Assembly (NCBI GenBank): GCA_964187785.1
Contig: OZ076409.1
Location: forward strand, 8,992,001-9,056,000
Source of the DNA: Amphiscolops sp. MND2022
Lineage: Eukaryota
Reading direction: 5' to 3'
Length of the DNA: 64,000 nt
The notes under the pieces were generated by a model, which was given only the letters and a program-made list of their open reading frames with translations, was not told where the DNA came from and ran no database searches. Made by a program: the position numbers and the translations under genes. Shown piece by piece: positions 4,661-56,753 of the stretch. Position 1 is the first letter of the stretch, and each line of letters begins with the position of its first letter.

Positions 4661-4681
4661 TTGTTTTGATCAAGTGAAGAA

Positions 4682-22080: not shown

Positions 22081-23606
22081 TGTGATAATCCTCACCTAGG
22101 CTCTCTGCATCAGACTCTTCGTCTGAATGTATAGTTACGTCTACATCTGATTCAGCTCGAAACAAAGGCTTTGCAGGATGTCTAAGATCTTTCATTTTAG
22201 AAGCCCTAAGAGGATAATCGTCATTTTCAGAATCAGAATTTCCAATGTTTGATGCGTGAACTCCATTAGACCTATCTATTTTGGATCCCGACGGTTGCTG
22301 ATCTCTGTTTTCGTTAATTTCTGACCTTGGATTTGTTGCCGTAGAAGCGCTTTTGTTAGACTTTATCTCTTTTAAGATTGTTTCCAGTTTGTTTTCCATC
22401 TCTTCTCTCATTTTTTCAATTCGATCATTATTCTTTTGTTCCATAATTTGGGTCCAGGCTTGAATTTCATTACTAACTACACTGGGTTCGATCAACTGGC
22501 CCTCTGAATTGTTTTCACCTAAATTTTCTTGAACAACCGTATTAGAATTAGTTAAAGTCTCATTACCTGTAATGGGTATTCCTACTTGAGTTACTTCCAC
22601 TTCTCTTTCTGGGGAAGGAGTCTCTAATCTCCTAGATCGTCTATTGCGTTTGTTTCCCATATTGCTTTGGGTGAAAATGGTTTTTGGCTTTTGGGGAAGA
22701 ATTTGAATTATCTTGTCTATTTGAAATAACAAGACACTAGAGTATCAGCAAATTACCAAAAGGTTTACAGATGTTTGAAGAAGCAACTGCACTTGTTGAC
22801 AGTTCAGGATTGAATGAATTCTCCTTCAGTTTTTAGAATGAAATAGCTCCAAAAATACCATGACACTCATTTTTACTGCAATCATTATTTGGAAAAGACA
22901 AAAATAGGATTACGTCAGGGTAACGTCATTCTATTTATAGCATCAGCTGAATTGCATCACGTTCTAAGTATATTTAAGGAAAGGACTAGGGAAAACCCTG
23001 GAAATTACCTAGAATGCGATATAAAATACATTTAAGATGGTTTCCAAATAGCATTACTTCAGCTTCCAAAGCTATATAGAAGGTCCTGCTAAAACCGCAT
23101 AATGACGAGTATACGTCACTACACAATCCGCAGAATACCGCATAGTGTTTCTGCAAAAAAAACGTATAGTGACGAGTATGCGTCACTCCTCGAACTGTAG
23201 GGTGCCGCATAGTGAATCTTGACAAAAACGCATAATGACGAGTATGCGGTACTGCTCGAACCGCAGACTACCGCATAGTCGTCAGCACAAAATGGTATTT
23301 AAACTAAATTGGGCTAAATAAGGATCAATGTTACGTAACATATTGCTCATCAACACAAGTTTCCTTTAATCTAACTCGGGTTTTATGCAATTGTTTGCTC
23401 TCAATGACATGTAAAACTAGGCCCTTTTCACATTAAATTGTACAAGTTATTTACATGACTTTCGAAAAAGAGAAAAGGCAAAATGAAAACAAATAAAACA
23501 AAATGTTTATTGTGAAAGTTTCACAGTTTTCAGATGATGGTCAGACACACTGTTCGCTTCAACTACTGTTGCTCTCCGGATCCCACGCAAGTTCTGGGTT
23601 GCGACA
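22081..23606 (-). repeat. 3' LTR of element A (contains a copy of the gag 5' region)
   Basis: Near-identical to 37196-38721; ORF 22052-22732 repeats the gag N-terminus. Confidence 0.96.
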
Positions 23607-24600
23607 GTCCTGCATTTTTGAAAGTGAACAGGGCTGCCTCAAATCCATCGATGAAAGCTCGTGACCTTACATTGCGATCTCTCACAGTTTCCGCTTCATA
23701 CGCTGTTGCGAGGAGGTACTCCCCGAGAATCTCCAACCCGATTTGATCATACGTCCTGCCACACCAGTCGCAAAAACCAGCGATGTTGGGCATCACAGTG
23801 GGGGACAGGCGATATGCGTCTCTCTCTCTGGGGGGCAACAACAGGAAACTTGTACTGTGGCTAGTTTGTACTGTAAGTCCATAGCGTGCTTGTTGTTGGG
23901 CATGCAAACCTCCTGGGCTGGCTATGAATATGGGTGCGTTCTGTGGAATTTGGATCATCATTGGGACGACGTTCTGCTGTAGTGGCATACTAATAAAAGG
24001 AAAATTTGGGTTGGCAATAATTGGTCTGTTTTGATAGACACTGTTCCCAGAACCAGGATTCACTGGTTGTACTTCCTGTATGTCATTTCTTGTTAGGTCA
24101 AAGTTGCTCGTTTGAGGCAAGTAACCAGGTGGGTATGTCGGCACAGGACAGGTAACCGTTCCTCTGCCCCTACCAAGACCCCTTGGAGTCGGTAAAATTG
24201 AGGCGGTCGGACGGCCATAGCTATTCGCAGGCATGCTTCCACTCATTTCCAGTTCATCTGGGGACTCTGGGGATTCTTCGAATTCTGTATCTATAAACGA
24301 TGGTGGCGAGACTGAACCATTGCTCGAGTGTTCCTCCACCAGTTCCATCAGTTGTCTTTCGATCTGTGATCCATCAGTATCAATGACCTCCTCAGTTTGG
24401 TAGGGAATCGAAAAGGAGGGAAACAGAGTTGCGGCGGCTGCGCCCACAAAGGCTGACATGGCATCTGAGGAAGGGCCTCCCACTCGGAATCTCTCGTCCA
24501 GAGCTTGAACATTTCCTGGTTCCACCATAAACTCTTCCCCGGACTCACTGGAAACGTCGATAACTGAGGGCGAAGAGATCTCGTCTATGTTGGTTTGCAT
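23563..24600 (-). CDS. Element A 3' accessory ORF (acidic/Pro-rich with C-terminal CxxC domain), ends inside the 3' LTR
   Basis: 345-aa ORF with ATG; GFCDWCGRTYDQI..EI..GEYL...RAFIDG aligns by eye with the element B ORF at 54547-55218. Confidence 0.8.
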   Translation of the reverse strand: MQTNIDEISSPSVIDVSSESGEEFMVEPGNVQALDERFRVGGPSSDAMSAFVGAAAATLFPSFSIPYQTEEVIDTDGSQIERQLMELVEEHSSNGSVSPPSFIDTEFEESPESPDELEMSGSMPANSYGRPTASILPTPRGLGRGRGTVTCPVPTYPPGYLPQTSNFDLTRNDIQEVQPVNPGSGNSVYQNRPIIANPNFPFISMPLQQNVVPMMIQIPQNAPIFIASPGGLHAQQQARYGLTVQTSHSTSFLLLPPRERDAYRLSPTVMPNIAGFCDWCGRTYDQIGLEILGEYLLATAYEAETVRDRNVRSRAFIDGFEAALFTFKNAGLSQPRTCVGSGEQQ

Positions 24601-25942
24601 TCTTCTGTTTTATTGTTGGGTTCTACTGTAATGTATTTTTTAGAGAAAGTTCTCACAAACTTATTTGGAGTGAAAGAGCTGCTGAATGTGAATTGAATTG
24701 AAAACCATATGGTGATCTCTCTTCTCTTTCCTTCTGACTTTGGAGGAAAACCCGCGGAAAAATTGCGTGTCATGTTCTGATCCTTTAACTTCCCTTATAA
24801 GGGTTTTATAGAGGATAGGTTTTCGGGTTTCATCCATAATAAGTTGTAAACAATTTCCATAAAAGGTGTTTCACTTAAAGCTCCAACGGATCATCAGTCA
24901 TCATCAAAGCTTACAGTTTTCCTCTGATATTCAAATGATATATAAACAAATTCATCCTAACTTCAAAGTAACTAGCTAAGAAATATTTTCATGGAAGTAT
25001 TCATTTAAACAGTTCAGAATTAAATATATTTAATCCTTCATGACTAGGTAAACATGAAAATAGAAAATATTAACGTGAATGTTTCATTTCAAATTCAGAT
25101 TATTACAGGATCAAAGTTTATTTTTAAGGAAAAACATAGTTTAATCCCGGTCCTGCAATTTTGAAAAATGCAACAGGGTTAGCAATAGTGCAAATAAGTT
25201 TACATGTTTATTGGTAAATCCATTTAGGAAAACTTGCAAAGGGTACCAGCAGTCTAGAAGAGATCTCGTCTATGTTGGTTTGCATTCTTCTGTTTTATTG
25301 TTGGGTTCTACTGTAGTGTATTTTTTAGAGAAAGTTCTCACAAACTTATTTGGAGTGAAAGAGCTGCTGAATGTGAATTGAATTGAAAACCATATGGTGA
25401 TCTCTCTTCTCTTTCCTTCTGACTTTGGAGGAAAACCCGCGGAAAAATTGCGTGTCATGTTCTGATCCTTTAACTTCCCTTATAAGGGTTTTATAGAGGA
25501 TAGGTTTTCGGGTTTCATCCATAATAAGTTGTAAACAATTTCCATAAAAGGTGTTTCAGTTAACGCTCCAACGGATCATCAGTCATCATCAAAGCTTACA
25601 GTTTTCCTCTGATATTCAAATGATATATAAACAAATTCATCCTAACTTCAAAGTAACTAGCTAAGAAATATTTTCAAGGAAGTATTCATTTAAACAGTTC
25701 AGAATTAAATATATTTAATCCTTCATGACTAGGTAAACATGAAAATAGAAAATATTAACGTGAATGTTTCATTTCAAATTCAGATTATTACAGGATCAAA
25801 GTTTATTTTTAAGGAAAAACAGAGTTTAATCCCGGTCCTGCATTTTGAAAAATGCAACAGGGTTAGCAATAGTGCAAATAAGTTTACATGTTTATTGGTA
25901 AATCCATTTAGGAAAACTTGCAAAGGGTACCAGCAGTCTAGA
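24572..25942. repeat. 685-bp tandem duplication inside element A
   Basis: GAAGAGATCTCGTCTATG at 24572 and 25257; copies differ by a few substitutions and one indel. Confidence 0.93.
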
Positions 25943-26129
25943 CTTTTGAAAACATAATAAAATCAAAAGAGCATCAGTGTCGTATTCACACGTTAATAGT
26001 GTCACATGTGTTTTGTCATTAAGAATATGTAGTTTCTTCGTCATATTGCATAATACCATCCATTCATACGCTTCTAATCATTGACAATATTAATCCACTC
26101 CTTTGGAATGCATACAGCGAAAACTGCAG

Positions 26130-26275
26130 GACGCCGAGTATGCGTCATTACTCGATCCGCATACTGCCGCATAGTCCTTGCCTGCAATTCCGCATACTGC
26201 CGCATACTCGTCACTGCAATTCCGCATACTGCCGTATACTCGCTGTTAGTCGATCCGCATACTGCCGTATGCTCT
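26130..26275. repeat. Degenerate CCGCATA-containing ~30-bp repeats
   Basis: TCCGCATACTGCCGCATA repeated; same motif family at 23095-23280, 29570-29810 and 38210-38395. Confidence 0.75.
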
Positions 26276-26639
26276 AGCATACAAACCATTCCAATTTGGT
26301 TCGTATTAGCGTATTTGCATGTATTCTCTCATCCAGAATCCACAATGAGTCAATCAATCACGCCGGCAGACGAAATTGACATTTAATTAACCAATCAGAT
26401 TATAGTATTCTCTTGCACATTTGCGCAAACTTGCATCATTTGCTCTTTGCCTTCTTTTACGCCACGCCTTCTTACGTATATTGCATTTTCAGTCAACTTA
26501 TTGTTAATTTCCTTGTTCAGTCTTTAGTCGTAGTTCACACATACAGAAGCAGTTCATCCATATCTTCCCCGACTTCCTTACATAACATTTCCAGCAGGAA
26601 AATTTCAAATTCGCATAATTTCATTACTCTTTTGGGATA

Positions 26640-29600
26640 ATGGATTCTACACCTGGCGGGTCAGGTTCTTCAGGCAAACGAAGATCCAGAAAAGATCAAT
26701 CGCCACATCACCGCGACGACTTTTGGAGTGATTTACCTCTCAATCCGATGTCCGGTAAGCTCAACTCATTTGTTTTGATTTGGTTCATTTTGATTCAGAT
26801 TTGAGACTTTTTGGTTTTTTGCAAAGCTGGCCAGGCTTGCAACTTGAAAATGGCTAGCGAAAATGTCTAGTCCAAATTCGGGTTTTTTGAAACGTTTTCG
26901 CTTCGAACTTCTAAGCTACTTCCGTTCTACTTTCATTTCCTGTCCCCGCGTCCGGTTTCAGGCATTTTCAAACGTGTTTCGCTTGCTAGATCAGATCCAC
27001 TTCCTTCTTTCATTAGGTAATAGATCATTGTTTTAGTTGAACTCTGGACTTCTCGGACTTCACCAGAAAAATCGCCTCACAAAACTGCCGCCACTTCAGA
27101 AAAATCTCCTTCTGTAAAGACGCCTGACAAAGTGTTTACCCCACTAGGAGTAGCTTCGCCTAGAGCAGCCAGTCTCCAAGTTCCCTTTGTGTCTCCTAGT
27201 GCTCAACCTCTCAGCATTGACGAGGGTATAGAAGTAGTAACTACCCCTGCATCTGTGAATCGTGAAGAGAACTGCTCAGCACAGGAACCAAAACAGAGAG
27301 CTGAATTACACTCCCCAGATAGACGTGTCAATCTTGGTGAAACAGCTGCAACTACCCCCACCACTAACATGGGCGATTTTAATCCAGTATTACAGCATGA
27401 CTTTACCGGGACTTATCCTGCCCCCCAAATTGCCCAGGCTTCTCCTTTCCAACTCGGGCAGTATTTGACTCCAACTTTACTTGATGACGCTACGGGGGAA
27501 AATCCCACTCTACTCGATGACCCCGCCAATTCAGAGATTGGAAATCTTGGACTTCAAGAAACCACCCGCACTGCTCCTACTGAAGGGGACTTTACTGACG
27601 TTGCCTATCCCAGCCTTAACGTCACTCGGCAGGAGATTCTGACACTAAGTAGTGTCTTAGAACGAATCCCACAGAACTTCATGTCCGGCGAAGGGGTAGA
27701 TGCTAATCAGCCCTTATCGCTAACTGTCGTGGATCACACTCTGGATCCTACACTCCTAGCTACATCAAGTCAGGAAGACCTTCCCGGACCCTCATCGTCC
27801 AGACCTCTGTCATCTGAAGGGCATGAAAGGCAACAGACAACACATGGCAAGAGGAGGAGACCTAGGTACTCACTGACAGTCAGTATGCTCAGGAAACATC
27901 CAGTACTTAAATTTTCCGCAACCGGTCCTCTGGATGCTGAGAAAACACCTTACAAGTGGTGGTGTAGAGTATGTAGGACGGAACTATCGCTGATGAGCCG
28001 GGGACCGTTGGAATTAATTTCGCATTACCGTTCAGACACTCATTTGACGAAAGAACACCGAATTCGCATGGAAATTCCTGGCACCCCACTGTTTGACAAG
28101 GATGGGAAAGAAATTCTAGGGATTTCCCTTCAGGAAGCAAAGAAGGTGGCTAGAGACTCCCACCCAATTGCTCCCCAATTGGACTCACGTCATCCTTTGG
28201 TCGGCCAATCTGCTGTACCTGCACTAGGAGTCGTATCTAGTCCGACCGACAAAGTCCTCTTTCAAATCGCCGTCTTGGAACATGGACTCAGACATGGGGG
28301 TCACATTAAGAGCGTCACAGGGATCTACGAGGAATTGTCTCGACTGATGTCCAATGACCAATCGACCACCCAAAATTGGAGTGAGCAACGAGTGTTTGTA
28401 AGTACTTTTCTCTACCTTGCTGATCTTAGTTAGCATTCCCTTACTAGGTTGTTATTCATGCTATGTTTTTTCAACAGGGAATTCTCGTGTACATGTTCAG
28501 AGAATTGATGAACTACTGCGTTACCATGACCACTTCTTCTGGGGCATATTCACTAGCAGTACAGCATTCACCAACCCATTCCTTTGTGATTTTATCATTC
28601 TGGTCGGGGAATGTCTTTCACCGTGTCTGCTTAGGCAGTTCTCCTCGAGGACTATTACTCCCCCGGAGGATTCTTAATTTGCTTGCCTCTTTCCTCAGCC
28701 TTTTTGACGTTCCCCCTTCGTGTATTGCACTTATTGGGGTTGGAGACAAGTTAGATGATTGCTTGTCAAACACTTTACCAGGCTCAAAAAGACCATGTAT
28801 TGTCAATACTTATGGGACTACCGACCTCGAAGTTAGTTTAACACTGCCGACAGTCCAAATAATTGAACGTCACGATTTTCGCACAATTTTGGACTTTCTC
28901 CTCATGAAATTGAGGACTGCACTTGACCGTGACTGGTTGCAGAGCTTGCCTACCCTTCATAAGGTATTTCTCACTCTTGGCTGTTTTCAATTTTGTTTCA
29001 CACAATCTTAAAGTCTCTCGTTTCAGTGTGTAATTCGCCTCGAGTACTCATTAGATGAAGCATCAGTTATCATTGAAGAATTGTCAAACCATTGGGATCG
29101 TGTTCGGGAGCATTTGAACCAGGTAGCAAGACTCCCAGTATACCGATTCCACATGAGAGTGGTTATTACACTTCCCAATAATCCCATTTCTTTGGAATTA
29201 CTTTGTTACTCAATATATTTTCTCTTAATTCAGCCGAACACTCTCGACGAATGTTTCCGCTTGGATACAGCCTATTTAGCCAGACTCTTCATCATCAGAT
29301 GCGTGTTAGACCACTGTTAGTTGCTCCACATCTTCTGATAAAGTATTGTAGTATCATTTGTTACCGGTTTTTAAATTTTCTGTTCAATCATTTTGTAATT
29401 CGTGCCTTCCCGTTTCGAAATAGGAGCCGTGAGGTCGTCATTTATCCATTCTACCAGTCATTTACTGTAGCACATGCATTTGCTTTCAATTTTGTAACAA
29501 TGATGAATAGTCATCGTATCTCCATTCGCATATTTGCGTATAACCATTTGTATATGCCTAAGGTAGTAGCATATAATCGTCACTGCTATTTCCGCATAGT

Positions 29601-31008
29601 GACGCATAGTCGTCGCACCTCGATCCGCATGTTGACGTATAGTCGTCATACCTTGATCCGCATGGTGACGTATAGTCGTCATACCTTGATCCGCATAGTG
29701 ACGTATAGTCGTCATACCTTGATCCGCATAATGCCGCATAGTTAATTTCTTTCAATCCGTATAATGGCGAGTATTCATTGCGCTTCAATCCGCATAATGC
29801 CGTATAGTTCCCGTATGATATTCCGTATAGTGTAGATATTTACTATACGTTTGCTCTCGTTTCATATTACTATGCAGCATATGAAATTGATTCAGACATA
29901 GCTGATCAATTAGTGCTGTTTTTGTGTTGTTTGTCCAAACGTGTTGGTGCAATAATATATTCCGAACAAATGTGTTCCATTACGTAGATTTTGGTATGTT
30001 TCAGATAATTCGGCCTTTTCGGAAGTAGAGAAGCGCATTGAAGGCGGATTTCGTTTGTACAATCAATTTGCCGTCTTCATATACAGTCAATTACAAAGTA
30101 TACTACCCGATAGTGTGCTAGGGAGTATTTCCGATTGGGACAGATATCTCACTATTGATCTCGACCAAACTGAGCTTCCTTACAAGACGTCTAGTGAATT
30201 TATTTTGAATGAAGACTTCCACAAGTTGGTTTTGGCAAGTAGGTTACCCCGTCCGGGGAAATTTGTGGACCAATCGATCGCCTTTTGTAAGGCTTTCTGC
30301 AAGTTACTGCTGTGCCACGATGTCATAAAGTCGGACTTAATCAGGGGGTTGTCAGCTTTTGACTCCAGTGTTATGATCGAGGGTCCCGAGGAACACTATT
30401 CCAGTGCAATTGAGAAGCTGTCGTGTTACTTTTCTAGTGCCGGGTGGATTTCAAGCAGCGATAAAGTAAAGATCATTAGTCAGTATCGTTCCTTTGTTAC
30501 TAAACTCCGTGCTGGACCAATACCAGAATACGAAGATTGGGTACATTTTTTGTCGTCTCATTATGAGATCCGGTGTCGTCCAGAGTTGCTTCAGCTTTAT
30601 AAGTACTCTTGCTTATGCTTGCCTCCTCTTATCGAAATGTCTCCAGAATTCACTGTTCCAGTTCTACGTTTAGAAGGTAATACTGAGTCCTTTCAGTCAT
30701 GCTTGCGGAGTTTACAGGCTTCCTATTTAACTGTCCCACACGTATCAAGTCTGTATCGTGATCCAAAATCTATCCCTCGAGTCTTCCGGCTTCTGGGACG
30801 TGGTGAGGATCTACTTACCGACAAGAGCTTTTACAATCTACTTTTACGAACCGAGAAGCCACCCATAACTTCAAGCAGTACAACACCTAGTGTTAGTCGG
30901 CACAGCAGTATAAATAGTTCGCCGTCCCCTGACCCTTCACTAAGCAGAGTTAGCCTGGAAGTTCCTCGCTGTGGAGACCTGGAAGCTGGAGGAGCATCAA
31001 AAAAATGA
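26640..31008 (+). CDS. Spliced antisense accessory gene of element A (~1047 aa): disordered N-terminus, BED-like zinc finger, degenerate hAT-transposase-like body. Predicted exons 26640-26754, 27037-28397, 28478-28963, 29027-29122, 29234-29315, 30005-31008
   Basis: All five GT-AG introns keep the frame (3144 nt total); WWCRVCRTELS...SHYRSDTHL; homologue in element B. Confidence 0.75.
29570..29810. repeat. 30-bp tandem repeat in predicted intron 5 of the antisense gene
   Basis: Unit GATCCGCATRGTGACGTATAGTCGTCATACCTT-like, ~5 good copies. Confidence 0.85.
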
Positions 31009-31227
31009 AGAATAAGTCTGGAAAAAACAAGATGACGAATTGAGAGTGTTCTCGCTTGACTTTGGATCTGTGTATTACTAGTTTGTTTTGTTTGTTTCGG
31101 AAGCCTTATTCTATCCGACTATTTACTCATTTAGTTGTATCTTCTTTGAATGAACTGATAATTCGTCTAGTTACGAACTGAAAAGACAGGAAAGAGATAA
31201 GAGAACGACTCTTCTGTGTGTGTTTTT

Positions 31228-40186: not shown

Positions 40187-40266
40187 TTTTAGTATACCCA
40201 TATTTTGTACCCGTATATAATATGAACCAAAATCTTTTGGGAAATTCGGAATTTGGAATCGTGTAA
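40187..40266 (+). repeat. 5' part of an interspersed repeat split by element B (continues 56754-56902)
   Basis: Joined halves match the uninterrupted copy at 58452-58702. Confidence 0.8.
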
Positions 40267-46000: not shown

Positions 46001-48525
46001 CGACTTTCTGGGACGCACCATCACTCCTGCTGGAGTGAAGCCGCAGAGACCACGGGTCCAAAATTTCCTAGAAAATACGAAATTCCCGAAATCCAAGAAA
46101 GCACTACAGCGTTACTTGGGATTTTTGAAGTATTACCGAAACTACATCCCAAGACTGTCAGAAAAACTAACGCTGTTTTCAAACTGCTCACTAAAGATGA
46201 AAAAGTCCTGGTAACACCGGACCTATTGGAAAAATTTACCGAGATAAACAAGGCTCTTGATCGATGTTGCGAACTGGCACTCAAACAACCCTTACCGAAT
46301 AAGCAAATAGCCCTTATGACCGATGCCAGCTTTTCGGCCGCAGGGTACGCAGTCCTCATCGAAAACGATCCACTCGAGAAGTACACTTCTACGAGGAAAG
46401 CTTTCGCCCCAGTAGCTTATGGTTCCAAGACCTTTAGTCCTACCCAATTGAAAATGTCCATCTATGCCAAGGAATTCTTAGCAATTTTCTTTGCCTTCAA
46501 GGAATTTGGACATATCTTTTGGGGAACCCCAAAACCGGTGATTATACTCACAGACAACAAGTCAGTCACACGATTTTTTCAAAGTAAAATTATTCCGCCG
46601 ACATTATGGAATGCTTGTGATTATGTGATCCAGTTCAACTTCACAAAAGCTCACATCCCCGGCAAAAACAACACAGCGGCTGATTACCTGTCACGCCTGG
46701 AGATCTCTCCAAAAGAGAAATTAATCCTCAGAATCAGAGAAGATATTCCTACAATACCGATCGAACTACATGTCCAATCGGCCGGAGTTTCGAAAGAGGA
46801 ACAAACCTTCTACACAGAGGATGATGACGAGACAGAAGAACAAATTTTACAGCGTAAAAAAGACGCTAGGGACCATCCATCAAATCAATTACCTGATATT
46901 TCATTCGAAAAATTTACTACACACAAAAGTGACTATCACAAACTCTCCACGCTTCAAAAACTATCCTGCACGGACTCTATAGCAGTAGAGCAAAGCAACG
47001 ACGTCATTTTGCAACAATTGCGCCTAAAAATACTAAAAGAAAGCTATTCTGAGACCATCCTCCTGCAAGATACTCGTTACCAACATTACTGTCGCCCAAT
47101 GGACCGACTGTCCGTTATGGATGAAATTATTATTAGACAGTATTTTGATGAAACAGGAGCTGTCAAATACAATCAAGTGCTTTTACCTAAACATCTGGTA
47201 CATGAACTACTTGAATCCCTACACGGCAAAACTAATAAACACCCTGGAATATCCAAGATGCTCGTCGAAATTCGCCAAAAATATTACTACCCTGGCATTG
47301 CAAAAATTGTTAAAAAATGGGTTCAAGGATGCGAAATTTGCATTGAAGATAAAAGAGACCCAAACTCATCCATAACTCCCGAATTGCTTAACTTGCCTGA
47401 ATGGGACTTAGGTCCGGAAGATGCAATGCAAATTGATTTGTTATCGAACCTGCCCCCCAGCGGAGGTTCTGAAAACATCATAACTGCAATGGATGTGTTT
47501 TCAAGATATCTTTTTGCATATCCAGTTACTGACGCTTCGGCCACAAATACGGCAAAGGTTATTATAGACATAATGACCAAACATACCTATTTGCCTACTA
47601 CCTTGATCACGGATAAAGGGACGGCTTTTACGTCCAGACTGGTCGCCGTAGTAGCTCAAATTCTCGGAATTCACATAAAATGCCCAACTACCAAACACCC
47701 GCAAACAATTGACAAATTAGAACGTACCCATGCTGGTCTCAAAACAAACCTCAAGATGGCCTCAGGGGACTACAGGCGACAGTGGCACAAATATTTGCCT
47801 TTAGCCGTATTAAATTATAATACGACCTATCACGCTACCCTAGGTTGTGAACCATCTAGAAGATTTCACGGACGAATTCCGTATAATATATTGGATCACA
47901 AATTGGGCCTTAATCCAAACCCGAAAGTCCTACCAACTACAGACTTTGCAGATGAATTTCAGCGCCGGACGCAAATTTTGCTTGATTCAACAAAGAAAAA
48001 CATTATGCAATCCTATTTGAAGTACAAAGAATATTACGACCGGACGATGAAATTATTATTCCGCAAGATGACCTTTATGTCATCACTTGGGATACCAATT
48101 TTGGTGAATTTCCCAATTCCACTGAAGAAACCGCAATTCCTACATGTCGAGAAGCGCTAGACACTTCTAATGATTACGCAAACAATACCAGAGCGCCGGA
48201 CGAAATTTTCACCGACGTGGACGTTACGTCCCCCGGGCCTCAAGAAAATGACGCCAGAGCGCCAGACGAAATTTTCACCGACGTGGACCTTAGGTCCAAC
48301 GGGCCACACGAAAATGATGAATTCGCTCCGCTTGAAAAAACACGTTCAGAACGCATAAATGATGGGATTGACGATCAACAATCGTCAGGAGGGAGTGATA
48401 CTATCGTGCCCGAAATATTAGATGATGAAGACGATATGATTGTAAAAAACGAAAGCCCCAGAGGAGGGAAATATAACCTACGACCTAACCCCACCCCCAA
48501 CTTTACCGACGAATACATATATTAG
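43018..48525 (+). pseudogene. pol: pol of element B, with frameshifts, an internal duplication and an integrase C-terminal deletion
   Basis: A AAA AAC slippery site at 43018-43024; LVNTGA (catalytic D>N); QYVDDI; MTDAS; HPGISKM..CEIC; ITDKGTAF; shares terminal KYNLRPNP with A. Confidence 0.93.
44164..45494 (+). repeat. 665-bp tandem duplication in element B pol
   Basis: CGACATTGCTTTCTGTGCTG at 44164 and 44829; at least 3 substitutions between copies. Confidence 0.95.
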
Positions 48526-48711
48526 CCAGAATTGTAAATTAACTGTCCCGAATAAACAATTGCAGAATAATATCTTTGCGGGACTTGACTGAATAAAAGA
48601 CAAAGAATACAGTAAAAAACAGAACACTAAATAGAATCCCAAAGTGTCTATACGAAAAGTTTTAGAAGCACTGTACAACAAACTAAAATGACAATTGTAC
48701 ATATGGTACAA

Positions 48712-51700
48712 TTAAGACTTATCTAAACTAGCATTTAAACGCTCAGCGGACTTGTTTAGCTCTTCATCTGAAATCAAGTGACTACGCCTCTTCCCTGGCT
48801 TTGGCACCATAAACGACGATGAGGCTTTACTGGTACTAGGGGCATCCTCTGCGGCGGAGACCTTCGGGCCTTTGGGCGTCACACTATTGATGACGTCAAT
48901 GATCTCAGCCCATCCAAACTTATCCAAGTCACTCCAGGGACTGTAAGAGTCCCTTAGCCCAGTTGACCCAAAGGTCGGTTCCGGAGCGAGAAACTTGGAG
49001 ATCGAAGACTGAGATGAAAACTTCTGCCCCGCGGGCAACATTGCCGAGGTACGATTGCAATGATGTAACAACATCGAACATTGGACTTTTTGGGTCATCA
49101 GTATGGACTGTCCCAAACTTGACAGGGGGAAAGGAGACGCGAGGATCATCTAGACAAAGACAACTGAGTCTGAAAATCCTCATGAGATAAGGCCGAGACC
49201 TGTAGGATTCTTGTCCACACACAAACTCAATAACGTCAGGAATACAGGAATAAGCAATTTTGGCTGGGAGATGTTGGTGTGAAGTTTGCGGAGTTCGTCA
49301 AGAAATGAGAGATACTCTTCGAAGTAAACCGTCTCTTCGTCTGCCAGCAACACACCTCGCAATCGGAAACTGGTAAACAGCTCCTTGAAACAAAAGGTCG
49401 CCAAAGATATTGGGTCGACCAACATCACGTCCAAATCAAAAGAACCCAGTCCTCTCACTATATCGCTGGTGAATCTCTGGAGCTTCTGAGCAGTGCCGAA
49501 TAGGGTGACTACATAACTACGAGCAGTGCGTCCAAAATCAGCTTTTATGTTCTCTGTAACTTCAGCTAGAGTCAGCTTTTCGTTTTTCTTCTCACTCATC
49601 TCGGCTTCCGCTTTCAGCTTGCATGCAGTTGCTAGTGTTTCGCTCAACCTGGACCGGGACAGGAAGTCAGCTACTGACAGAGCCTTAGTGTCAGCCATAA
49701 CGAGACTGTAGACCCCGGGAAAATCATTTTCTTCAGGAATGCTGCTGGAACTGACGCAACGTCTGCCCAGCTTGAAGAGATATTGACCTAGCTCTCGATA
49801 CACATGGAAGCCTCGATCACGGCGCGTCTTGAGATTTGGGGTGAAACTGCTGGTGACTATAAAAGAAAGAGTGAAAACTTTGAACCCAATAGTATATGGC
49901 GAAACTATGAATGGCAACACTAACAATCGCGCACTAATCGGTAGAACAACTCGAGTCTACTCGGAAAGAAGTCGTCGTAAACAAGAGACCATTCTAAGCT
50001 CTGGGGCTGAAAAGAAACATTCAGTTGAGATACTGCATTGGACCGTAGGTCTAAGGAGCCAGAGAACTCTTACTTGTTTGCGGACTCCTGTGCCTTCTTG
50101 GGTAGGGGTGCTTTTCGACAAGAAAGCAACCACTTTGCTCCAGTGACGCAACAGTTCTTGGCAGAGGACTGGTAGACCATTGATGTCCAATTGGCATGAT
50201 CTAATTGCCTGAAAACAAAAGAAGGGCTCCGTCTAAAACCCTCGGATCTAGATGCAAAGAACAAAGTCTCAAACCAACCTTCGACAATTCAGGGGACACC
50301 AACATTCAGTCCTGATCTAGACAGCCTCCCAGGCACACGATGACAAATTGCACAACTGAGAAGAAGTCTATGTTTCCGAACACACTGTACCCCTTCTTAT
50401 GCATTATGGTCTTCAAAGACAGCTCTTCAAAACGGGGGGGGGGGGGATTTTGGATTCCATAAGCTGAGGGCTTTGGATTCCATAACCAGATGCGTAGGGC
50501 ATTGGTCCAGCAAGACGATAGTTCAGTGCGTTGTTCCAGTACAACTGACTAAGTGGGGCTTCGTTGAGAATATGCCCATGACGTTGGAAACAAGCCTAAC
50601 CTCAGCTTGCTTGAGTGAGGCCGAGGAGACGTCCGGTCCTTTTCAAGAAGACCCTAAACAATTGGTCATCACGCCAATATCGGATAAATACCAACAGAAA
50701 AACACCTTCTTGAGCGAATTCCAATGAATACTCAGAGGCAGCGACGACATGGCTTCCAATGTCATTCATCATCTCAAGGAATAAGTGATGGAAGATGACC
50801 TATAACACAATCTTGCCTTTCATGTCAGAATTTAACTAGTAAGGCGACCTCGCGTAGCATGAGGCTGAAAGAACCTTAGGTCCACTACAATACTCTAACA
50901 ATGTACCCGTCTGAGTAAAGTGAAAATACTAACTGAAAGTCTTTCCCTGCTCCAATCGAAATCTGTGAACAGTGCCTGGTGGTTCACAATCACACCCACG
51001 TCGCTCCAGAATCCTTTGAGCACATCAATATTCCCATAATGGGTGAGAAATCGGCACAGAATGGAAATCTGAATTTTTGCCCGGTCGCCCGAAGAAGATG
51101 CCATGTAATCAGTACCCGCCATGAATTCGTCAAAAAATGGAAGCTTCTTGCCGATATCCACCAACGGTACATCCTTGAACTTTGAGTATTCTAACTCCAG
51201 CTGGTAAGGTGTGAGGAGTTTGCCGTCTTTACCCCTGACTTGATGAACAACTTTGCGGGTAACTGGGTCTACCTTGGATAGATGCTCGAACCTCCACCTT
51301 TGGTCTTTCCTCAAGTGCTTTTCGGTAGAGTGGTGTCGCAAAATTTCTCGGGCTCCCTTTCCATATTATGATATGTTTGCCTTGCAAATTTGGCAATAAA
51401 ATTTGTAAGGGTTCCATCGCAGATCGACTGGCCCTGACACAAAAGTCTTCGTCCACTCCATACCTTTAAAATACGCCTCCTTCATGATCTTACAGGAGCG
51501 AGTAATCGGCCTCCTAGTACGTCCTCTCGATGCGGGAATGCGTCGGTTGCTGGGCTTGCCCCGACTTGAACTCTGATCCTGTAAGGCTTCTCTTTGTAGC
51601 GCTGCAAGGGTCTGAGATCCTGGACCATTGACGCTGAACTCTAGGTCAGGGGACGCTTGGTCATTAGAGCCACACCCAGGAATGAGCTGTGCAGTAGGTG

Positions 51701-53270
51701 GTCTGCCAATTATTTCAGTTTCGGAGTGCTCATATGCGTAGCCAAAACTCCCGAAGTCGTCATCACTACGGATACCACCACTAGTGTCACTTCCCGCTTC
51801 AATTTCGGATTCGCCTTCATCAGATCCCTGTGAAAGGCTACGTACGTTGGACCTGCCTGGTACCGAGGTATTTAAGCTAAGCCTGCTGGCACGGTATACA
51901 AGATTCTCGAGCATGTCGTAAGAAGCCCTGGCAGTCTCATCGGCTACGATCCTCAGTACGCTAGATATCTGATCTTCAGTCAAGGCTATGGTAGAGTGAC
52001 CTCGAAGCAACTCAACCGGTTCAGTTTTAGCAAAATACTCTTTCAAAAGAGCTCGGCTACTGACTTTTAGCGGTTCAGGTTTACCAGTTGGAGCAGGAGG
52101 TAAACTTGCTGATTGACTGGAGGCTTTGTCGACTTCTATCAAGGGATTGTACCTCCCGGAAGTTAGGGCATCGGCCATGGTAGAACCACCTGCATTAGAT
52201 GACTCAGCATCGGTCTCAAGCCCATAATCAGAACTGCTACCCATTCGGATCGGTTGCTCTGATTCACCAAAGCCATGATGGAGACCAATAGATGTTGTGG
52301 AAGGAGCTATGGAAGGCTCACTATGAATATCGTCCTGCAAAGTTGGGCGCAAGGGAGTAGCAGGTCGTACTAATTTGGCTCTTTTCTTAGAATTCCCAAT
52401 GGCAGAGGAATTGCTTGAAGCCGAGTACGCTGTAACAGTATCTAAGAATGCCACAGCAGGAACCTGATGAAATTGTCGGTCTGGTCGTTCCTTTTGCTCT
52501 TGGCCAGGAAAGACAGTTATTAACTCACTTTCACTCTCCTTCTGGGAGGCATCATGGTCTGCTAGGGTTCCCTCCTCGTTGGTCTCAGTACCCAGTTCTT
52601 GCATTTTGCGAGTGAAAAATGCCTGGCAGCTCTCATTCGATTCGCTTCCGTCAGAACAAAGCAGCTGAGACAAAGGCGAAACCTCTGTTGGAGTCTGATC
52701 TTGGCTAATCCCAATTTGCATGACTTCTGCTTGAACATGCTGGCTACTGGAAGGGGCTTCATGAATCTGAGGCTGACTGGACTCAGTGTCCATGGCTTCA
52801 GTCATTGGCTGGTCCTTCTTGGGAAGTTCTGATGTCTGAGGCTGACTGGACTCAGTGTCCATGGCTTCAGTCATTGGCTGGTCCTTGTTGGGAAGTTCTG
52901 ATGTCTGAGGCTGACTGGACTCAGTGTCCATGGCTTCAGTCATTGGCTGGTACTTCTTGGGAAGTTCTGATGTCTGAGGCGGGCAGAGCTCAATGTCCTT
53001 GCCCTCTGCTATTACTCGACTGTTGCTATGCAAGGGGTCGGGAGCCTGTAATTGTCTGACCTCGTTCTCTTTGATTTCACTCGACGATTGTTGACTGCTG
53101 GTTGGAAAATCATGAGCAGTATCAGGGATTGAAAATTCGTTCCTGTCAGCCTCTTCAACCTCAGCTAATTTCTGAGTTGGTTGGCCGTTAGTCTCTTGTT
53201 CTAAATAGAAAGAGATAAATTTACGCGGTGTACTTCCTGAATATGAATCCATTTTGCCGCATTTTGACAT
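48712..53270 (-). pseudogene. Spliced antisense accessory gene of element B, homologue of A 26640-31008, with frameshifts (first exon not resolved)
   Basis: YKFYCQICKANIS...LRHHSTEKHL; donor after WSRERLS (50934); acceptors at 50799 and 50208; SDIVRGLGSFD matches SDLIRGLSAFD in A. Confidence 0.78.
52766..52980 (-). repeat. 69-bp coding tandem repeat (~3 copies) in the antisense gene
   Basis: Peptide PQTSELPKKDQPMTEAMDTESSQ repeated. Confidence 0.92.
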
Positions 53271-54374
53271 TCTTCCGGAAGTAAGTTATGTTCAAATTAA
53301 TGTTTCAACGTGAAAACATTTAAAATGGAGGAAGTGAATCTAGTCAAAAGTTGAACCCTGATCAAGCTCAACTTAGACACAATTAAAGAACCAACCTGAT
53401 GCTATCTCCATAGTGGGGAAACAGAATTCTTGATCGGAATAGCTGTCGAAGGAGATGCGTTTGTAACCTGCTCAGGTTAGAGAATCTGGATAAACAATTG
53501 ATTGAGGCCAGGGAGGCTGTAGGTCCTCGTGTTCTGTTCACTCCGATGGCGAGGGAAGCGCTTTGAACGAATCGATGAAGTAACCAGTGAAAGTAACTTG
53601 TAGTTAGAGAAATGACGACGGTTGGGATTACTGTACCTCAAGCACTTATACTTTCATTCGTATATCATTCACAAACACTCACCTGTCTACCCTTTTTACC
53701 CAACTAGACTAACAGTCTAACTAATACTATTGAGACTTTTATTAGACGCTAAATTACAAATGGATGTCGTGGCTAGTACATTAGCAATTAGTTACCATTC
53801 ACTATCATTTCATTTCATTATCACATTTCTCATGTCTTGAACCTGCCAGTGAAAGCCATGAAGTTTCACTTTATTTCGCAAATAAAAGGTACAACTCAAC
53901 TACGTTCTTCATAGTTTTCATCTCCTTTACCATATTTAGTTATTCATTCGGGCGAATTATTAGTTAATGAAACGCCATTAGTCTTATCGTGAATGAGGCC
54001 TGCCGGACCGTCGGTCTTTGATCGAGTTATTGTTTACCAGTCTTTAACATTGGTAAACACTCTTACTGGGCAATTAACAACTCACAAGTTGTTAGACAAA
54101 TACGATGATAGGCCTTCAAGGACCAATTGAGAAGCTTTTCAGCTGACTTCTGATACTATTTATGAAAACTTATAACTTTACTTAAAAAGAATCCGAGGAA
54201 AATCTGAGGGAACTCCAGGTTTTGTTACCCCGCTTAAAATTTCCACAAATTTATTGAAAGTGGACCTGAGGTCTGTCGGGCTAGAGCAAATCATTCAACT
54301 CAAATCCTTACTACGATCAAGCAACACAATTCAAAATTGCCAAAAAACCTATTCTGGGAAGATATCTAGCTGAG

Positions 54375-55218
54375 ATGTCACTACAATTTAATGTAGAAGA
54401 ATTCATCCGACCGCTAGTGAGCGAAGTTTATAATTCTTCTGACGAGGATATGGAAGTGGACGTGCTTTCTATACCAAATTACTCCCAACAAGACGATGGG
54501 TGCGACAGTGATATTGAAATTATAGCGTGCTATAGAGAAGTCCCCGATGTTCCCACCACAACTAGCAGGAGGACGCGCAATGACGACCGAATTTGATGCT
54601 AACGAGTACGACCTAACTCAATCGCAATATGGACAACCCGGATCAGTGGCGTCAACCACGGATCCATCCGATAGCCTGATTGAATGGTTTGTTGGGAACC
54701 CACCCCAACGAACATATAAAGAGGGAGACTCGCGGCACCAGATTGTTCAGTGTAGTGGATTGGAACCAGTACCTTATTCCCCATTGTCACCACCGTTAGA
54801 GGAACAAGGACCTTCAGTCGCACAGTATTATGGTGAATACCCTGAAGAACAAGGTCAGGAAAGTGAATGGATTAAAAACCCCCACATTTCCGGGATGACA
54901 ATTAGTGCGAGCGGAATTTGTGGAACCCCCAACTATATCCAATATGGAGGATGTACAGTGTGTGGTAAGTCTTACTCGGCTATTCAAGAAGAGATTACTT
55001 TGGGATATTTAGAGAAAACACACATCCCTGAGGAAAACTACATTCAAAGGATTCGCAGGAGAAATTCTTTTCAAGCCGGAATGAAAGCCGGCAGTGTGAT
55101 TCTAGTCCCAGGGGGAGTGTCGCAGGCTGCCGCCTGTGACCGCAATTACTACCAAATCCCTTCAGTAGACGATCTATCTAACCCCCTGCCAGGAGTACTC
55201 CCTATTCAGAAGGTTTGA
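54375..55218 (+). pseudogene. Element B 3' accessory ORF with CxxC domain, probable frameshift near 54545, ends inside the 3' LTR
   Basis: ORFs 54375-54596 and 54547-55218; GGCTVCGKSYSAIQEEITLGYL...RNSFQAGM. Confidence 0.75.
55110..55117 (+). promoter_or_regulatory. Short polypurine tract of element B
   Basis: AGGGGGAG directly before the 3' LTR TG. Confidence 0.6.
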
Positions 55219-56753
55219 CAACAATGGACCGATGGTACGGACGGCCTCACTCAAATTGAGGCAAATATAGAAGAACTGCGTCCAAAACATAAAGGACCTT
55301 AGGTCGATACAGCCTCATCAAACAATTGTGTTAAAATTAATCACAAAACACTCTACTGTATGTAATTTACCGTTGCCTAATAATATAGTTAGTTTGTGCT
55401 TGATTTACCTGTTGATTATTGTTGAAATAGTAATGTACCAAATGAATTGGAATTAGCAATGTAAAATGATCAATTTGAATGATGTATTAGAATGCAATTG
55501 AAGCGCAGTAAGGAAACGTGTTCGAATGTACTGTTGTTGTGGCTGATTGTACGCAACGTCGAGTGCTGTATTAACCAATCAAATCGAGCTAGCTATACAA
55601 TTGGTGACGCCGCATGGACGTTACGTCCGATTTGGCGTAATTGCCAATCACGCTGTCTGTGATTATTCTAATGACATGAAGTGTTATTATTAGAAATATG
55701 AACATGTAAATAGCATATTCAGGCATAATAAAAATCCTCCATGCGTACTTATATGACATCATAATCTCCAGCTACAACCCTTAGCCGCTTCTTTTGATGC
55801 TATTTTTGTCCTTACAAACATGATGAAATAGTGACGTAATGTCCCTAGAACTGTTCCAAAACCCCATCTATTGCTATTTTTAGAACCATGACCCGCATCA
55901 TTCTGTGTGTAACCCCACCCAAACTATGAATAGCGGGAACACTGGAGAGCAAGGACCAAAACTTTCACAATCTTGATACAAACAAGTCGATATAATATTG
56001 TCACGATACTGAACTTTGAGTTTAAAGCTCTGCTGATACATACTTTGTTGATTTGGATTATCTTGTTAGTTGATATTTACAATTGACTGTGAAACTCAAA
56101 TCCCCTTCTCATGCCTTCCACGAGAAAGCAAAAGGCTAAAGAACGTCGTTCTAGACAGTTAGACATGCTGTCCGATGTAGAAAATGTTGACATAATGCTT
56201 GGAAGTTACTCTAGGGAAGATGGTGAGAATAATGTTAGTGAAAATGAAGTGAATTTGGACTCAGGGTCTAGCAGACCACAACAAAGCTCAAATGTTATAG
56301 GAGAAGACTTTAGGTCCTTGCTTAATACCAACAGCAGGGAAAACAGTGAAATCACAATTGAGACTTCTAGGTTGATAAGCGAGGAAATTTCCAATCAAAT
56401 GTCTAGAAAACTCAATGAAATTAAAACTGGTTTGAATTCCCAAATTAAGGATGCAATTACAGCTGCAATAACAAGTACAGTGCTTCCTTCCATCCAAAAT
56501 ACACTAGAAATGCAGGGGAGACCTAATTTCACCATGGTGGACCGGGAGTCCAACGGGCCACATCCTAGCCCAAGGTCGACCGATTTCACATTAAAGGACC
56601 GAAGGTCCAGTGGGCTACAATGGAACGCCGAAGTAGGAAATTCGCAGAAAACATGGGAAAATCGTTCTAGAACATGTTTTACACAGGCAAATAGTAGACT
56701 GAGGTCTAGAGAGAGTTCAACAAACTCTATAACTAGCGAACAAAATCGCGACA
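55118..56753 (+). repeat. 3' LTR of element B (contains an intact 215-aa gag N-terminal ORF, 56111-56758)
   Basis: Copy of 40267-41903. Confidence 0.96.

Follow-up and report, generated by a model that had tools for sequence, protein, structure and literature searches.

Two diverged Ty3/Gypsy elements of an animal genome share gag, pol and two accessory genes

Introduction

Do two large Ty3/Gypsy elements in a 64,000-nt stretch of Amphiscolops sp. MND2022 DNA (contig OZ076409.1, positions 8,992,001 to 9,056,000; hereafter the window) belong to a stable lineage with two selected accessory genes, or did they capture extra reading frames at random? An earlier note on this DNA favored the stable lineage and called its architecture apparently undescribed. 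Here, we conclude that elements A and B are likely to be defective and to come from two diverged branches of a single animal Ty3/Gypsy lineage, one that is very abundant, was recently active and carries two accessory genes, a judgement that covers the whole explanation, its observed and inferred parts together.

Results

Anatomy of elements A and B

Element A lies on the minus strand, with its antisense gene (listed below) on the plus strand.

22081..38721, minus: element A, full-length Ty3/Gypsy, 16,641 bp, TG..CA ends
22076-22080 and 38722-38726: 5-bp target duplication, AATTA on the plus strand (TAATT in element orientation)
37196..38721, minus: 5' LTR, 1526 bp
37180..37195, minus: primer-binding site TGGTGACAGGAGCCAA, inside the gag reading frame
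36108..37775, minus: gag, ATG at 37775, zf-CCHC knuckle, TAG at 36108-36110
31228..36168, minus: pol (protease, RT, RNase H, integrase), -1 frame
24601..26639, no strand: region between the divergent accessory ATGs, presumed promoter region
23563..24600, minus: sense accessory ORF ("CxxC ORF"), 345 codons, ATG at 24600
22081..23606, minus: 3' LTR, 99.1% identical to the 5' LTR

Element B lies on the plus strand.

40267..56753, plus: element B, full-length Ty3/Gypsy, 16,487 bp, TG..CA ends
40262-40266 and 56754-56758: 5-bp target duplication TGTAA, backed by an empty-site paralog
40267..41903, plus: 5' LTR
41904..41919, plus: primer-binding site, 16 nt identical to those of A, TGGTGACAGGAGCCAA
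41513..48525, plus: gag-pol remnants over at least seven frames or ORFs
48712..53285, minus: antisense gene remnants, collinear with the A exons
50937-53285, minus: exon-1-like, in-frame TAA at 51366-51368
50279-50796, minus: exon-2-like, with stops
50113-50169, minus: exon-3-like
49124-49956, minus: exon-5-like
54375..55218, plus: sense accessory ORF, ATG at 54375, starting MSLQFNVEE
55118..56753, plus: 3' LTR, 97.7% identical to the 5' LTR

Self-comparison aligned the LTR pair of A (22080-23606 and 37195-38721) at 99.1% identity over 1527 nt and that of B (40267-41905 and 55118-56755) at 97.7% over 1639 nt. After trimming to TG..CA ends, the borders of both elements are those the earlier note had given, and both elements start with TGTCGCA as it described. 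The empty-site paralog of B, at 58420-58710, has one TGTAA between matches to the two flanks of B. The layout that had been reported as common to the two elements also holds: a gag start inside the LTR, gag, pol, an antisense gene and a sense ORF running into the 3' LTR, and A and B agree at each of the 16 nt that directly follow the 5' LTR.

The gag ATG is at LTR position 947 of 1526 in A and at LTR position 994 in B, the ORF crosses the primer site, and an intact-looking gag N-terminal ORF (56093-56758) lies within the 3' LTR region of B. Pfam domains follow the order zf-CCHC, aspartic protease, RVT_1, RNase H and integrase. The -1 frameshift that had been proposed for both elements was found in A, where a slippery T_TTA_AAC (36111-36117) sits directly 5' of the gag stop and pol is in the -1 frame; in B, no TTTAAAC heptamer was found at element positions 2000-3600. 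The pol of A is broken by two in-frame stops (TGA at 34348-34350 and TAG at 33088-33090). B is far more decayed: gag, pol and the sense ORF are frameshifted, the antisense gene contains stops, and 665 bp of pol are tandemly duplicated (44164-45494). Both elements are defective copies that cannot make pol.

A six-exon antisense gene

Comparison of diverged copies indicates that the antisense gene proposed earlier is real and spliced; its structure is corrected to six coding exons with five GT-AG introns and 1,060 codons in A.

26640..26754, plus: exon 0, 115 nt, ATG, basic stretch GKRRSRK
26755..27036, plus: intron 1, 282 nt
27037..28397, plus: exon 1
28478..28963, plus: exon 2, 486 nt
29027..29161, plus: exon 3, 135 nt
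29234..29315, plus: exon 4, 82 nt, phase 1 at its end
30005..31008, plus: exon 5 with the stop codon

All 10 diverged copies that were examined show, at every junction, a GT donor and a YAG acceptor preceded by a pyrimidine tract, and their exon flanks are conserved, with introns variable in sequence and length. The exon phases are consistent (0, 0, 0 and 1) and the coding total is 3183 nt. Exon 0, whose donor in A is GTAAGC in phase 1, is either 115 nt or 97 nt long, each length being 1 mod 3, in all 7 copies in which both motifs were found. Exon 1 encodes, in order, a variable Ser/Pro-rich part, KRRRPRYSL, a CxxC-x16-H-x5-H zinc-finger motif and a conserved domain, and exon 5 encodes an all-alpha domain followed by a Ser/Thr-rich basic tail; the intron before exon 5 is 689 nt long and contains tandem repeats. 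The gene converges on pol, with 219 nt from stop to stop. Intron 1 holds motifs kept across diverged copies (GCTGGCCAGGC, TTTTTGAAACGTTTCCG and CCCCGCGTCCGGTT), so that the true antisense promoter could sit there and exon 0 would then be in some transcripts only.

The accessory sequences of A and B differ, as had been noticed, and their proteins are 25-35% identical over short stretches only. The antisense matches are collinear, with 25% identity over 228 residues in exon 1 (E 1.7e-15) and 30% over 60 residues in exon 5. The variable N-terminal part of the B antisense gene contains 69-bp tandem repeats (52766-53013).

The sense ORF, the intergenic region and LTR signals

The sense ORF lies between pol and the 3' LTR; it spans about 345 codons and has an ATG of its own, which is conserved. 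Its start, MxxLQFNxEE, is common to A and B, and the C-termini are 33% identical over 64 residues (E 1e-4). In A it encodes an acidic VIDVSSESGEEF motif and a C-terminal CxxCG domain, and its last codons are the LTR start, so that the first 43 nt of the 3' LTR form its coding end. The CxxCG domain is present in the B ORF too, which extends 101 nt into the 3' LTR; this ORF is frameshifted, starting in ORF 54285-54596 and continuing in ORF 54526-55218.

The two accessory genes point away from each other on either side of a conserved non-coding stretch of about 1.3-2 kb, which in A is enlarged by a 685-bp tandem duplication (24572-25942). The motifs AACCCTTATAAGGG, TTTTCCGCGGG and CACCATATGGTC are conserved 100-250 nt upstream of the A sense ORF. 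Non-coding motifs upstream of the sense ATG and in intron 1 are common to 10-12 diverged copies, and comparison of diverged copies gave no consistent reading frame in the intergenic region.

AATAAA or ATTAAA occurs 91-110 nt into the 3' LTR in 7 of the 8 copies in which the LTR start motif was found; in A, AATAAA is at position 96. A TATAAATA box is at position 668 of the A 5' LTR. The sole canonical poly(A) hexamer of the A LTR is upstream of the TATA-like box; its use in the 3' LTR would truncate the genomic RNA ahead of R.

Abundance, selection and mosaicism

The lineage has gag and pol plus two protein-coding accessory genes. Among 20 pol-anchored relatives, drawn from the top 40 integrase matches (identity of 91% or more) and thus speaking for the branch of A only, the antisense blocks were present in 20/20 and the sense ORF and the LTR gag start in 19/20. 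The branch of B was checked only by its abundance and by the openness of one exon. The genome contains thousands of candidate copies, with first-look counts of 6730 for the A-type last exon, 5315 for the B-type and 4427 for the sense ORF. At 48-100% identity, 86 of 116 scored matches to the antisense last exon and 96 of 116 to the sense ORF are stop-free, and 290 clusters (50% identity) of a public protein library match the exon-5 profile.

Purifying selection keeps both accessory genes in nearly all sampled relatives. In both genes, pN is 0.1-0.45 and synonymous sites are mostly saturated, and pN is well below pS in all accessory blocks. The median pN/pS values are 0.22/0.86 for the C-terminal part of exon 1, 0.23/0.86 for exon 2, 0.07/0.97 for exon 4, 0.24/0.88 for exon 5 and 0.38/0.80 for the sense ORF. 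The few unsaturated accessory pairs give omega values of 0.05-0.14, and the LTR-encoded gag N-terminus has a median omega of 0.16 (135 usable pairs). Co-occurrence, abundance, intactness and selection together support the earlier proposal of a stable lineage with two selected accessory genes over random captures.

The elements are mosaics, with breakpoints at the pol end and just upstream of the antisense ATG. In the same 36 pairs from 9 elements, pS is 0.03-0.57 for integrase and 0.73-0.99 for the antisense gene. At the pol stop, identity between A and one relative (L010) drops from 99% to about 62%; between A and another (L014), the drop is from 98% to about 58% and comes just upstream of the antisense ATG. 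The low integrase pS beside saturated accessory pS, together with these sharp breaks at gene borders, indicates recombination of old accessory modules with a young pol, the accessory genes being shuffled between copies like cassettes.

Alternative explanations

Pfam gave nothing for either accessory protein, even at lenient cut-offs, and this lack of database homology, with the partly damaged copies in A and B, could suggest that the extra ORFs are carried along neutrally or are open by chance within a long non-coding spacer. We regard this as very improbable, since it is contradicted by pN well under pS in every block, by the stop-free majorities and the 290 library clusters, and by the conservation of introns and start codons. 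It is equally hard to credit that the sense ORF is an env-like gene and the elements endogenous retrovirus-like (errantivirus-like): it does occupy the env position, sense-oriented and placed between pol and the 3' LTR, but the antisense gene separates it from pol, it has its own conserved ATG and upstream motifs and no Pfam match, and its only about 345 residues are 40-45% Ser/Pro/Thr/Gln/Asn/Gly. A transmembrane-like segment is absent, the highest 19-residue Kyte-Doolittle mean being 1.0-1.5 in 5/5 copies checked. Somewhat less improbable, and still doubtful, is that the antisense RNA matters rather than a protein, pairing with genomic RNA to feed small-RNA silencing or self-regulation, with the ORF incidental. 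The unit converges on pol, 219 nt from its stop, and regulatory roles of antisense transcripts are discussed for other retrotransposons in the available text of PMC7264820. However, protein-level constraint is strong despite saturated synonymous sites, most scored copies keep open reading frames, and splice sites and exon phases are conserved; the unit does not overlap gag-pol coding sequence and would therefore pair little with the coding parts of genomic RNA. The RNA may still have a role alongside the protein.

Of these alternatives, the one with the best prospect, though it too is unlikely, is that the antisense gene encodes a catalytically inactive hAT-type DNA transposase, captured together with its introns at the DNA level and since co-opted by the retrotransposon; the product would combine a BED-like finger at the N-terminus with an RNase-H-like core and, C-terminally, a helical half. 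In both runs, the structure that the exon-5 model matched best was the C-terminal half of the Hermes hAT transposase, a weak, collinear fold resemblance of the C-terminal exon (first run: 8edg_A, Z 5.2, rmsd 3.4, 86 aligned; second run: Z 5.3, rmsd 7.8, 176 aligned, model 1-241 against chain 368-609). The BED-like finger pattern, CxxC-x15/16-H-x5-H near the N-terminal third, and the protein size are compatible, and among the language-model neighbour clusters of the finger exon one contains zf-BED (12% of members, score 0.87) and another the Spin-doc/GT2D2 finger (81% of members, score 0.86). These Atlas scores are all below 0.9 and are leads only, however, and the Z of 5.3 is tied with that of an unrelated cat allergen (Z 5.1), far under the tool's meaningful level for helical models. 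Foldseek found nothing; zf-BED, zf-C2H2_12, DUF4371 and Dimer_Tnp_hAT matched 0/53, 0/12 and 0/13 family members at E up to 5-10; and when hhalign compared the exon-5 profile with C-terminal hAT ORFs from the same genome, the probability was 0.14%. Unlike hAT transposases, to which neither sequence nor profile similarity was detected, the antisense gene lacks terminal inverted repeats of its own.

Discussion

For the lineage with two selected accessory genes, we infer splicing, promoters and poly(A) sites from conservation only, and propose the following mechanism. The conserved intergenic region may act as a divergent internal promoter, driving the six-exon antisense gene toward pol and the sense ORF toward the 3' LTR, where the early LTR AATAAA would polyadenylate the sense transcript. 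The introns of the antisense gene would persist through retrotransposition because they are opposite to the genomic RNA strand and unseen there by the spliceosome. The antisense product is predicted to be a nuclear nucleic-acid-binding factor whose roughly 1,060 residues comprise NLS-like basic stretches, a single C2H2/BED-like zinc finger and a large body that is mostly helical; it may influence the expression of the element itself or the host's control over it. For the sense product, we predict a small and mostly disordered adaptor that carries acidic SIM-like motifs and, C-terminally, a CxxC domain. Old accessory and LTR modules could be mixed with the younger, nearly uniform pol by template switching between RNAs packaged together.

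How new is this architecture? Zhao et al. are said to have described brtn in 2011, reportedly in fungal chromoviruses and encoding a small Cys-rich protein, with no second sense gene reported. The earlier claim of an undescribed architecture stands insofar as no animal equivalent was found in full-text literature searches, with Repbase, Dfam and GyDB outside the scope of the search; it falls for the general kind, since extra genes that lie antisense between pol and the 3' LTR, in some cases with introns, are published for plants (Grande, RIRE2 and Retand) and, as brtn, for the Boty-like Gypsy elements of Botrytis cinerea, according to the available text of PMC7264820 and PMC11963269 (for brtn, PMC7264820). 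In plant Tat-lineage elements (maize Grande with gene23, rice RIRE2, Retand of Silene and others), the portions of PMC7264820 and PMC11963269 at hand place the antisense ORF in all or most copies and describe, as here, a long pol-to-LTR region with tandem repeats; the Grande antisense gene has its own promoter and a nuclear product, and Retand clusters can hold sense ORFs without known function in that region. Most Retand antisense ORFs carry Pfam Transposase_28 in the same excerpts (PMC7264820, PMC11963269), whereas no Pfam family matches here; the plant antisense proteins are set apart from ours by description. The elements studied here further differ in their animal host, in a six-exon antisense gene of 1,060 codons, and in a further gene, in sense, that is strictly conserved, has an ATG of its own and overlaps both the polypurine tract and the end of the LTR.

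Among animal elements, CERV of C. elegans Cer1 is reportedly read in sense from the element's own transcript. Cer1 is likewise a Gypsy-family LTR element encoding an extra protein, CERV, which is required for Cer1 RNA handling according to the available part of PMC10309623. In contrast, the extra genes here are separate units with their own ATGs, one of them antisense with introns.

HTLV-1 HBZ is an antisense gene, and in foamy viruses an internal promoter drives the 3' regulatory genes. Complex retroviruses resemble the present elements in having regulatory genes 3' of pol, one antisense and one from an internal sense promoter, both expressed apart from gag-pol; an HTLV antisense promoter is also mentioned in the accessible text of PMC7264820. 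They are vertebrate, carry env and are unrelated in sequence to these elements, the promoters and products here being predictions only. By this analogy, the lineage most plausibly works like complex retroviruses; we propose to label it a "complex" retrotransposon.

Structure of the two elements

Self-comparison of the window delimited two LTR retrotransposons, element A by a repeat pair at 22080-23606 and 37195-38721 (99.1% identical over 1527 nt) and the diverged element B by a pair at 40267-41905 and 55118-56755 (97.7% over 1639 nt). With the LTR repeats trimmed to TG..CA, the two Ty3/Gypsy elements are:

22081-38721 (-), element A, 16,641 bp
40267-56753 (+), element B, 16,487 bp

Both start with TGTCGCA and have target duplications of 5 bp; an empty-site paralog of B is present in the window (58420-58710), where both flanks are contiguous around a single TGTAA. 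At the nucleotide level, the sole detectable similarity between A and B is in the reverse transcriptase (73% over 591 nt), and at the protein level gag-pol shows 40-76% similarity. The Pfam domains of the A pol (gag-asp_proteas, RVT_1, RT_RNaseH, Integrase_H2C2, rve) stand in the Gypsy order with the integrase last, and a Pfam scan of all A ORFs reported no chromodomain. In gag, zf-CCHC reached 21.2 bits (cut-off 20.8) and Ty3_capsid 16.3 bits, under its cut-off of 29.1.

The gag ORF has its start within the LTR (position 947 of 1526 in A, 994 in B), and its reading frame continues across the primer site, where the 16 nt directly 3′ of the 5′ LTR are the same in both elements. The LTR-encoded part of gag is coding (median omega 0.16, 135 usable pairs). 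In A, a T_TTA_AAC heptamer lies immediately 5′ of the gag stop, with pol following in the -1 frame. These results confirm what the earlier note had read from the sequence: the element bounds, the size of ~16.5 kb and the TGTCGCA start of both elements, the identical PBS, the LTR-borne gag 5′ end and, in A, the -1 frameshift.

The A pol carries two in-frame stops. In B, frameshifts interrupt gag, pol and the sense ORF, and the antisense gene contains stops. Both are therefore dead members of an otherwise healthy family. A non-standard genetic code was considered as the cause of the A pol stops and dropped, since many sister pol frames run for >1,600 codons uninterrupted under the standard code. 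Each element also contains an internal tandem duplication, one of 685 bp in A (24572-25942), spanning the sense-ORF start and its upstream motifs, and one of 665 bp in B (44164-45494), within pol; the duplicates are >99% identical in each case, and hence recent or copy-specific.

An antisense gene with five predicted introns

The interval from pol to the 3′ LTR contains, on the strand opposite to gag-pol, a gene with five introns. Its structure was deduced by aligning ten copies whose antisense proteins share only 56-68% identity: every conserved block ends at GT (mostly GTAAGT or GTTAGT), the next block is preceded by a pyrimidine tract with CAG or TAG, and the intron sequence between them is unalignable and of variable length. 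The exon phases are mutually consistent. In all seven copies with motifs found, the first coding exon measures 115 or 97 nt; both lengths are 1 mod 3, as the next exon needs. The coding exons in A, 3183 nt in total, are:

26640-26754 (+), exon 0
27037-28397 (+), exon 1, the finger exon
28478-28963 (+), exon 2
29027-29161 (+), exon 3
29234-29315 (+), exon 4
30005-31008 (+), exon 5

The remnants in B match A collinearly. The comparison of copies supports the convergent spliced gene that had been proposed, with six coding exons. From the N-terminus, the product has two basic stretches separated by a fast-evolving Ser/Pro-rich region (pN 0.50), then a single CxxC-x16-H-x5-H finger followed by ~700 well-conserved residues, and a basic, Ser/Thr-rich tail. 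Two repeats were also seen in this gene, a ~66-nt tandem unit in the last intron of A (29591-29809) and a 69-nt unit in three copies within the N-terminal coding sequence of B (52766-53013).

Intron 1 (26755-27036 in A; relatives L010-L027) contains the near-invariant non-coding motifs GCTGGCCAGGC, TTTTTGAAACGTTTCCG, ACTTCCG and CCCCGCGTCCGGTT, while the exons flanking it are only ~35% identical in protein among copies sharing these motifs. They could mark a promoter or enhancer within the intron, or belong to a cis-element that functions in the sense genomic RNA. A Met ~169 codons before the finger domain is conserved in most of 18 copies examined and, together with a promoter-like intron 1, could give rise to a shorter antisense isoform.

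The sense gene and the intergenic region

The sense ORF (23563-24600 (-) in A, ~345 codons) starts with M-x-x-LQFN-x-EE and a conserved ATG in the relatives of A and in B. It contains an acidic motif, V-I-D-I-S-S-x-S-x-E-E-F, which we take to resemble SUMO-interaction motifs, a conserved NSYGRP...LPTPR motif and a C-terminal domain, CxxCG...AFIxGFEAALFxFKNAGLS. The ORF ends in codons formed by the polypurine region and the opening bases of the 3′ LTR; the LTR terminus TGTCGCA is thus read as L-S-Q, and the claim that a CxxC ORF runs into the 3′ LTR holds. An env-like, errantivirus-like gene was rejected, since the ORF has no Pfam match and no transmembrane-like segment (no hydrophobic segment >1.5 in five of five copies).

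The 1.3-2 kb between the two divergent accessory ATGs are conserved at the nucleotide level without a consistent reading frame, and AACCCTTATAAGGG, TTTTCCGCGGG and CACCATATGGTC, located ~100-250 nt upstream of the sense ORF, vary little or not at all among 12 diverged copies. From this conservation, we infer that the region may serve as a divergent internal promoter. In the A LTR, the only canonical poly(A) hexamer is at position 96 (regions of 23511 and 38626), upstream of a TATA-like box at 668, and a hexamer is found at LTR positions 91-110 in seven of eight relatives checked (including L009 and L015-L019). Such an early hexamer would suit an mRNA of the sense ORF and seems hard to reconcile with a genomic RNA reaching R.

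Both accessory genes are retained and selected in the sampled relatives

The family is abundant in the 1.07-Gb host assembly. The A integrase gave 27,767 first-look candidates, and the 71 integrase matches scored are 89-100% identical, many of them inside uninterrupted pol frames of >1,600 codons. First-look candidates numbered 6730 for the last antisense exon of A, 5315 for its B counterpart and 4427 for the sense ORF. As counted from the matches listed, internal stops are absent in 86 of 116 scored matches to the last antisense exon and in 96 of 116 to the sense ORF, with identities down to 48-64%. Co-occurrence was determined in the 10 kb downstream of the integrase in 20 relatives, taken as every second of the best 40 matches, so that all are at least 91% identical in the integrase. 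The antisense coding blocks were found in all 20 relatives, and the sense ORF and an LTR with the gag start in 19.

Selection was evaluated by Nei-Gojobori counts on codon alignments. In every accessory block, pN is far below pS; synonymous sites are saturated in most pairs, and in the few unsaturated pairs omega is 0.05-0.14 for the conserved accessory blocks. Taken together, co-occurrence and purifying selection support the proposal that these elements are a stable lineage with two selected accessory genes.

Accessory cassettes are older than the pol they accompany

For 36 pairs of nine elements, the integrase shows pS of 0.03-0.57 and pN of 0.01-0.05, whereas the antisense exons of the same pairs show pS of 0.73-0.99 and pN of 0.10-0.34. 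Sliding identity profiles of A against its relatives locate the changes. Against L010, identity is 99% until the pol stop and ~62% beyond it; against L014, it is 97-100% through pol and the entire antisense gene and ~58% beyond a point just upstream of the antisense ATG; the sole difference from L009 is a 300-nt patch within the sense ORF. Since identity breaks at gene borders, this indicates that recombination has joined a much younger pol to accessory and LTR modules that are old and diverged. Textbooks ascribe such recombination to template switching between co-packaged RNAs, which would account for the shuffling of modules here.

Origin of the antisense protein

No Pfam family, Transposase_28 included, was assigned to the accessory exons among the A ORFs or in 78 family members. 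Under lenient settings, only scattered single chance-level matches appeared (13 exon-5, 12 exon-2 and 53 finger-exon relatives). In a Pfam scan of 15 distant exon-5 relatives, a single match appeared, below threshold. When PDB sequences were searched with the exon-2 profile, there was no match at E up to 10. In public protein collections, only unnamed exon-sized ORFs from ENA assemblies were found: 102 clusters for the finger exon, 95 for the sense ORF and, for the exon-5 profile, 290 clusters at 50% identity, with none >419 residues among the matches listed. All public relatives listed (102, 95 and 150) are unnamed, ORF-sized fragments, and a homologue search for longer proteins found no longer, spliced or fused relative.

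One rival explanation is that the antisense gene derives from a hAT transposase. The finger exon shows a BED-type pattern by eye, and its Atlas neighbours include, as leads, BED and Spin-doc/GT2D2 finger clusters (0.86-0.87); Pfam profiles detected a BED-type or related finger in none of 53 members. For exon 5, AlphaFold gave a poor model with 13 sequences (pLDDT 46) and an all-helical domain with 105 sequences (pLDDT 78.7, at least 95 at residues 21-170). The C-terminal half of the Hermes hAT transposase ranked top in both exon-5 runs of VIA-align, but its Z of 5.2-5.3 is tied with unrelated chains and the model covers exon 5 alone; Foldseek against PDB matched nothing to this model at E up to 0.001. 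In addition, the hAT dimerisation domain PF05699 was found in none of 13 members at E up to 10, and hhalign of the exon-5 profile against eight hAT C-terminal ORFs of the same genome was flatly negative (probability 0.14%). A hAT origin is kept as an improbable rival. For exon 5, the ESM Atlas offered no more than weak leads, DUF3684 and DUF8348 in 12-22% of cluster members.

Ordinary hAT transposons are themselves numerous in this genome (2215 first-look candidates for the C-terminal domain); the 150 matches scored all exceed the Pfam cut-off. These transposons have no sequence relationship to the antisense gene.

Other features of the window

3362-9920, third LTR element, 6.6 kb, 946-bp LTRs 98.5% identical, tandem repeat at 4427-4663
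12237-12956 (-), ORF, double jelly-roll-like (E 1.8e-7)
2435-3184 (+), ORF, Endonuclease VII (E 1.4e-4)
1441-2325 (+), ORF, UBZ finger (E 2.6e-4)

The ORFs of the third element match DUF1759 and DUF5641 in Pfam, which we take to be BEL/Pao gag and integrase-tail families, and the element is BEL/Pao-like. BEL/Pao elements are not known outside animals, and this neighbour, taken with the canonical spliceosomal introns, indicates an animal host. The three weakly matching ORFs may be Maverick/Polinton-like or viral remnants upstream of A.

Comparison with known elements

The excerpt of PMC7264820 describes elements with an additional antisense ORF located between pol and the 3′ LTR, namely Grande, RIRE2, Retand and PvRetro13 in plants and Boty in Botrytis; the Grande ORF is transcribed from a promoter of its own and has a nuclear product. 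According to an excerpt of PMC11963269, one or more antisense ORFs are present in every Retand element, most of them with a Transposase_28 domain, and tandem repeats and sense ORFs without a known function occur in some. The layout is therefore of an already known kind (aORF-3R), with a conserved opposite-strand ORF between pol and the 3′ LTR at 20 of 20 loci here. The claim that the architecture is undescribed does not stand for the antisense-ORF layout, which those excerpts place in plants and fungi; for animals it may hold, with no example found in full-text literature searches. Unlike Retand, the present gene has no Transposase_28, a difference that bears on common descent and not on layout. 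Unlike the plant and fungal cases, the host is an animal, the gene has five introns and encodes a 1,060-residue orphan zinc-finger protein, it is constantly paired with a sense gene that has its own ATG and overlaps the LTR end, and the accessory genes re-assort like cassettes.

Implications

Animal LTR retrotransposons are usually described as gag-pol with an optional env. Here, two extra genes are under strong selection in thousands of candidate copies, so they presumably matter for the success of the lineage. In engineered retrotransposition reporters, introns of a retroelement persist solely on the strand opposite to the genomic RNA, and the antisense gene is a natural case of this logic. 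A near-identical integrase set against saturated accessory genes also makes the family a clean system for studying modular recombination and element-encoded regulators, and gene predictors will call the accessory exons as thousands of orphan host genes.

A possible, if still doubtful, reading is that these elements are an animal counterpart of a complex retrovirus, with two regulators of their own under internal promoters and with anciently diverged, selected types re-assorted onto a young, near-uniform gag-pol. If this is true, there might be type-specific recognition, in which each zinc-finger protein acts on the conserved motifs that its own cassette carries in the intergenic region and the intron; another possibility is that an arms race with host silencing might drive the cassettes. 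The accessory cassettes, and not pol, would then define the competing lineages.
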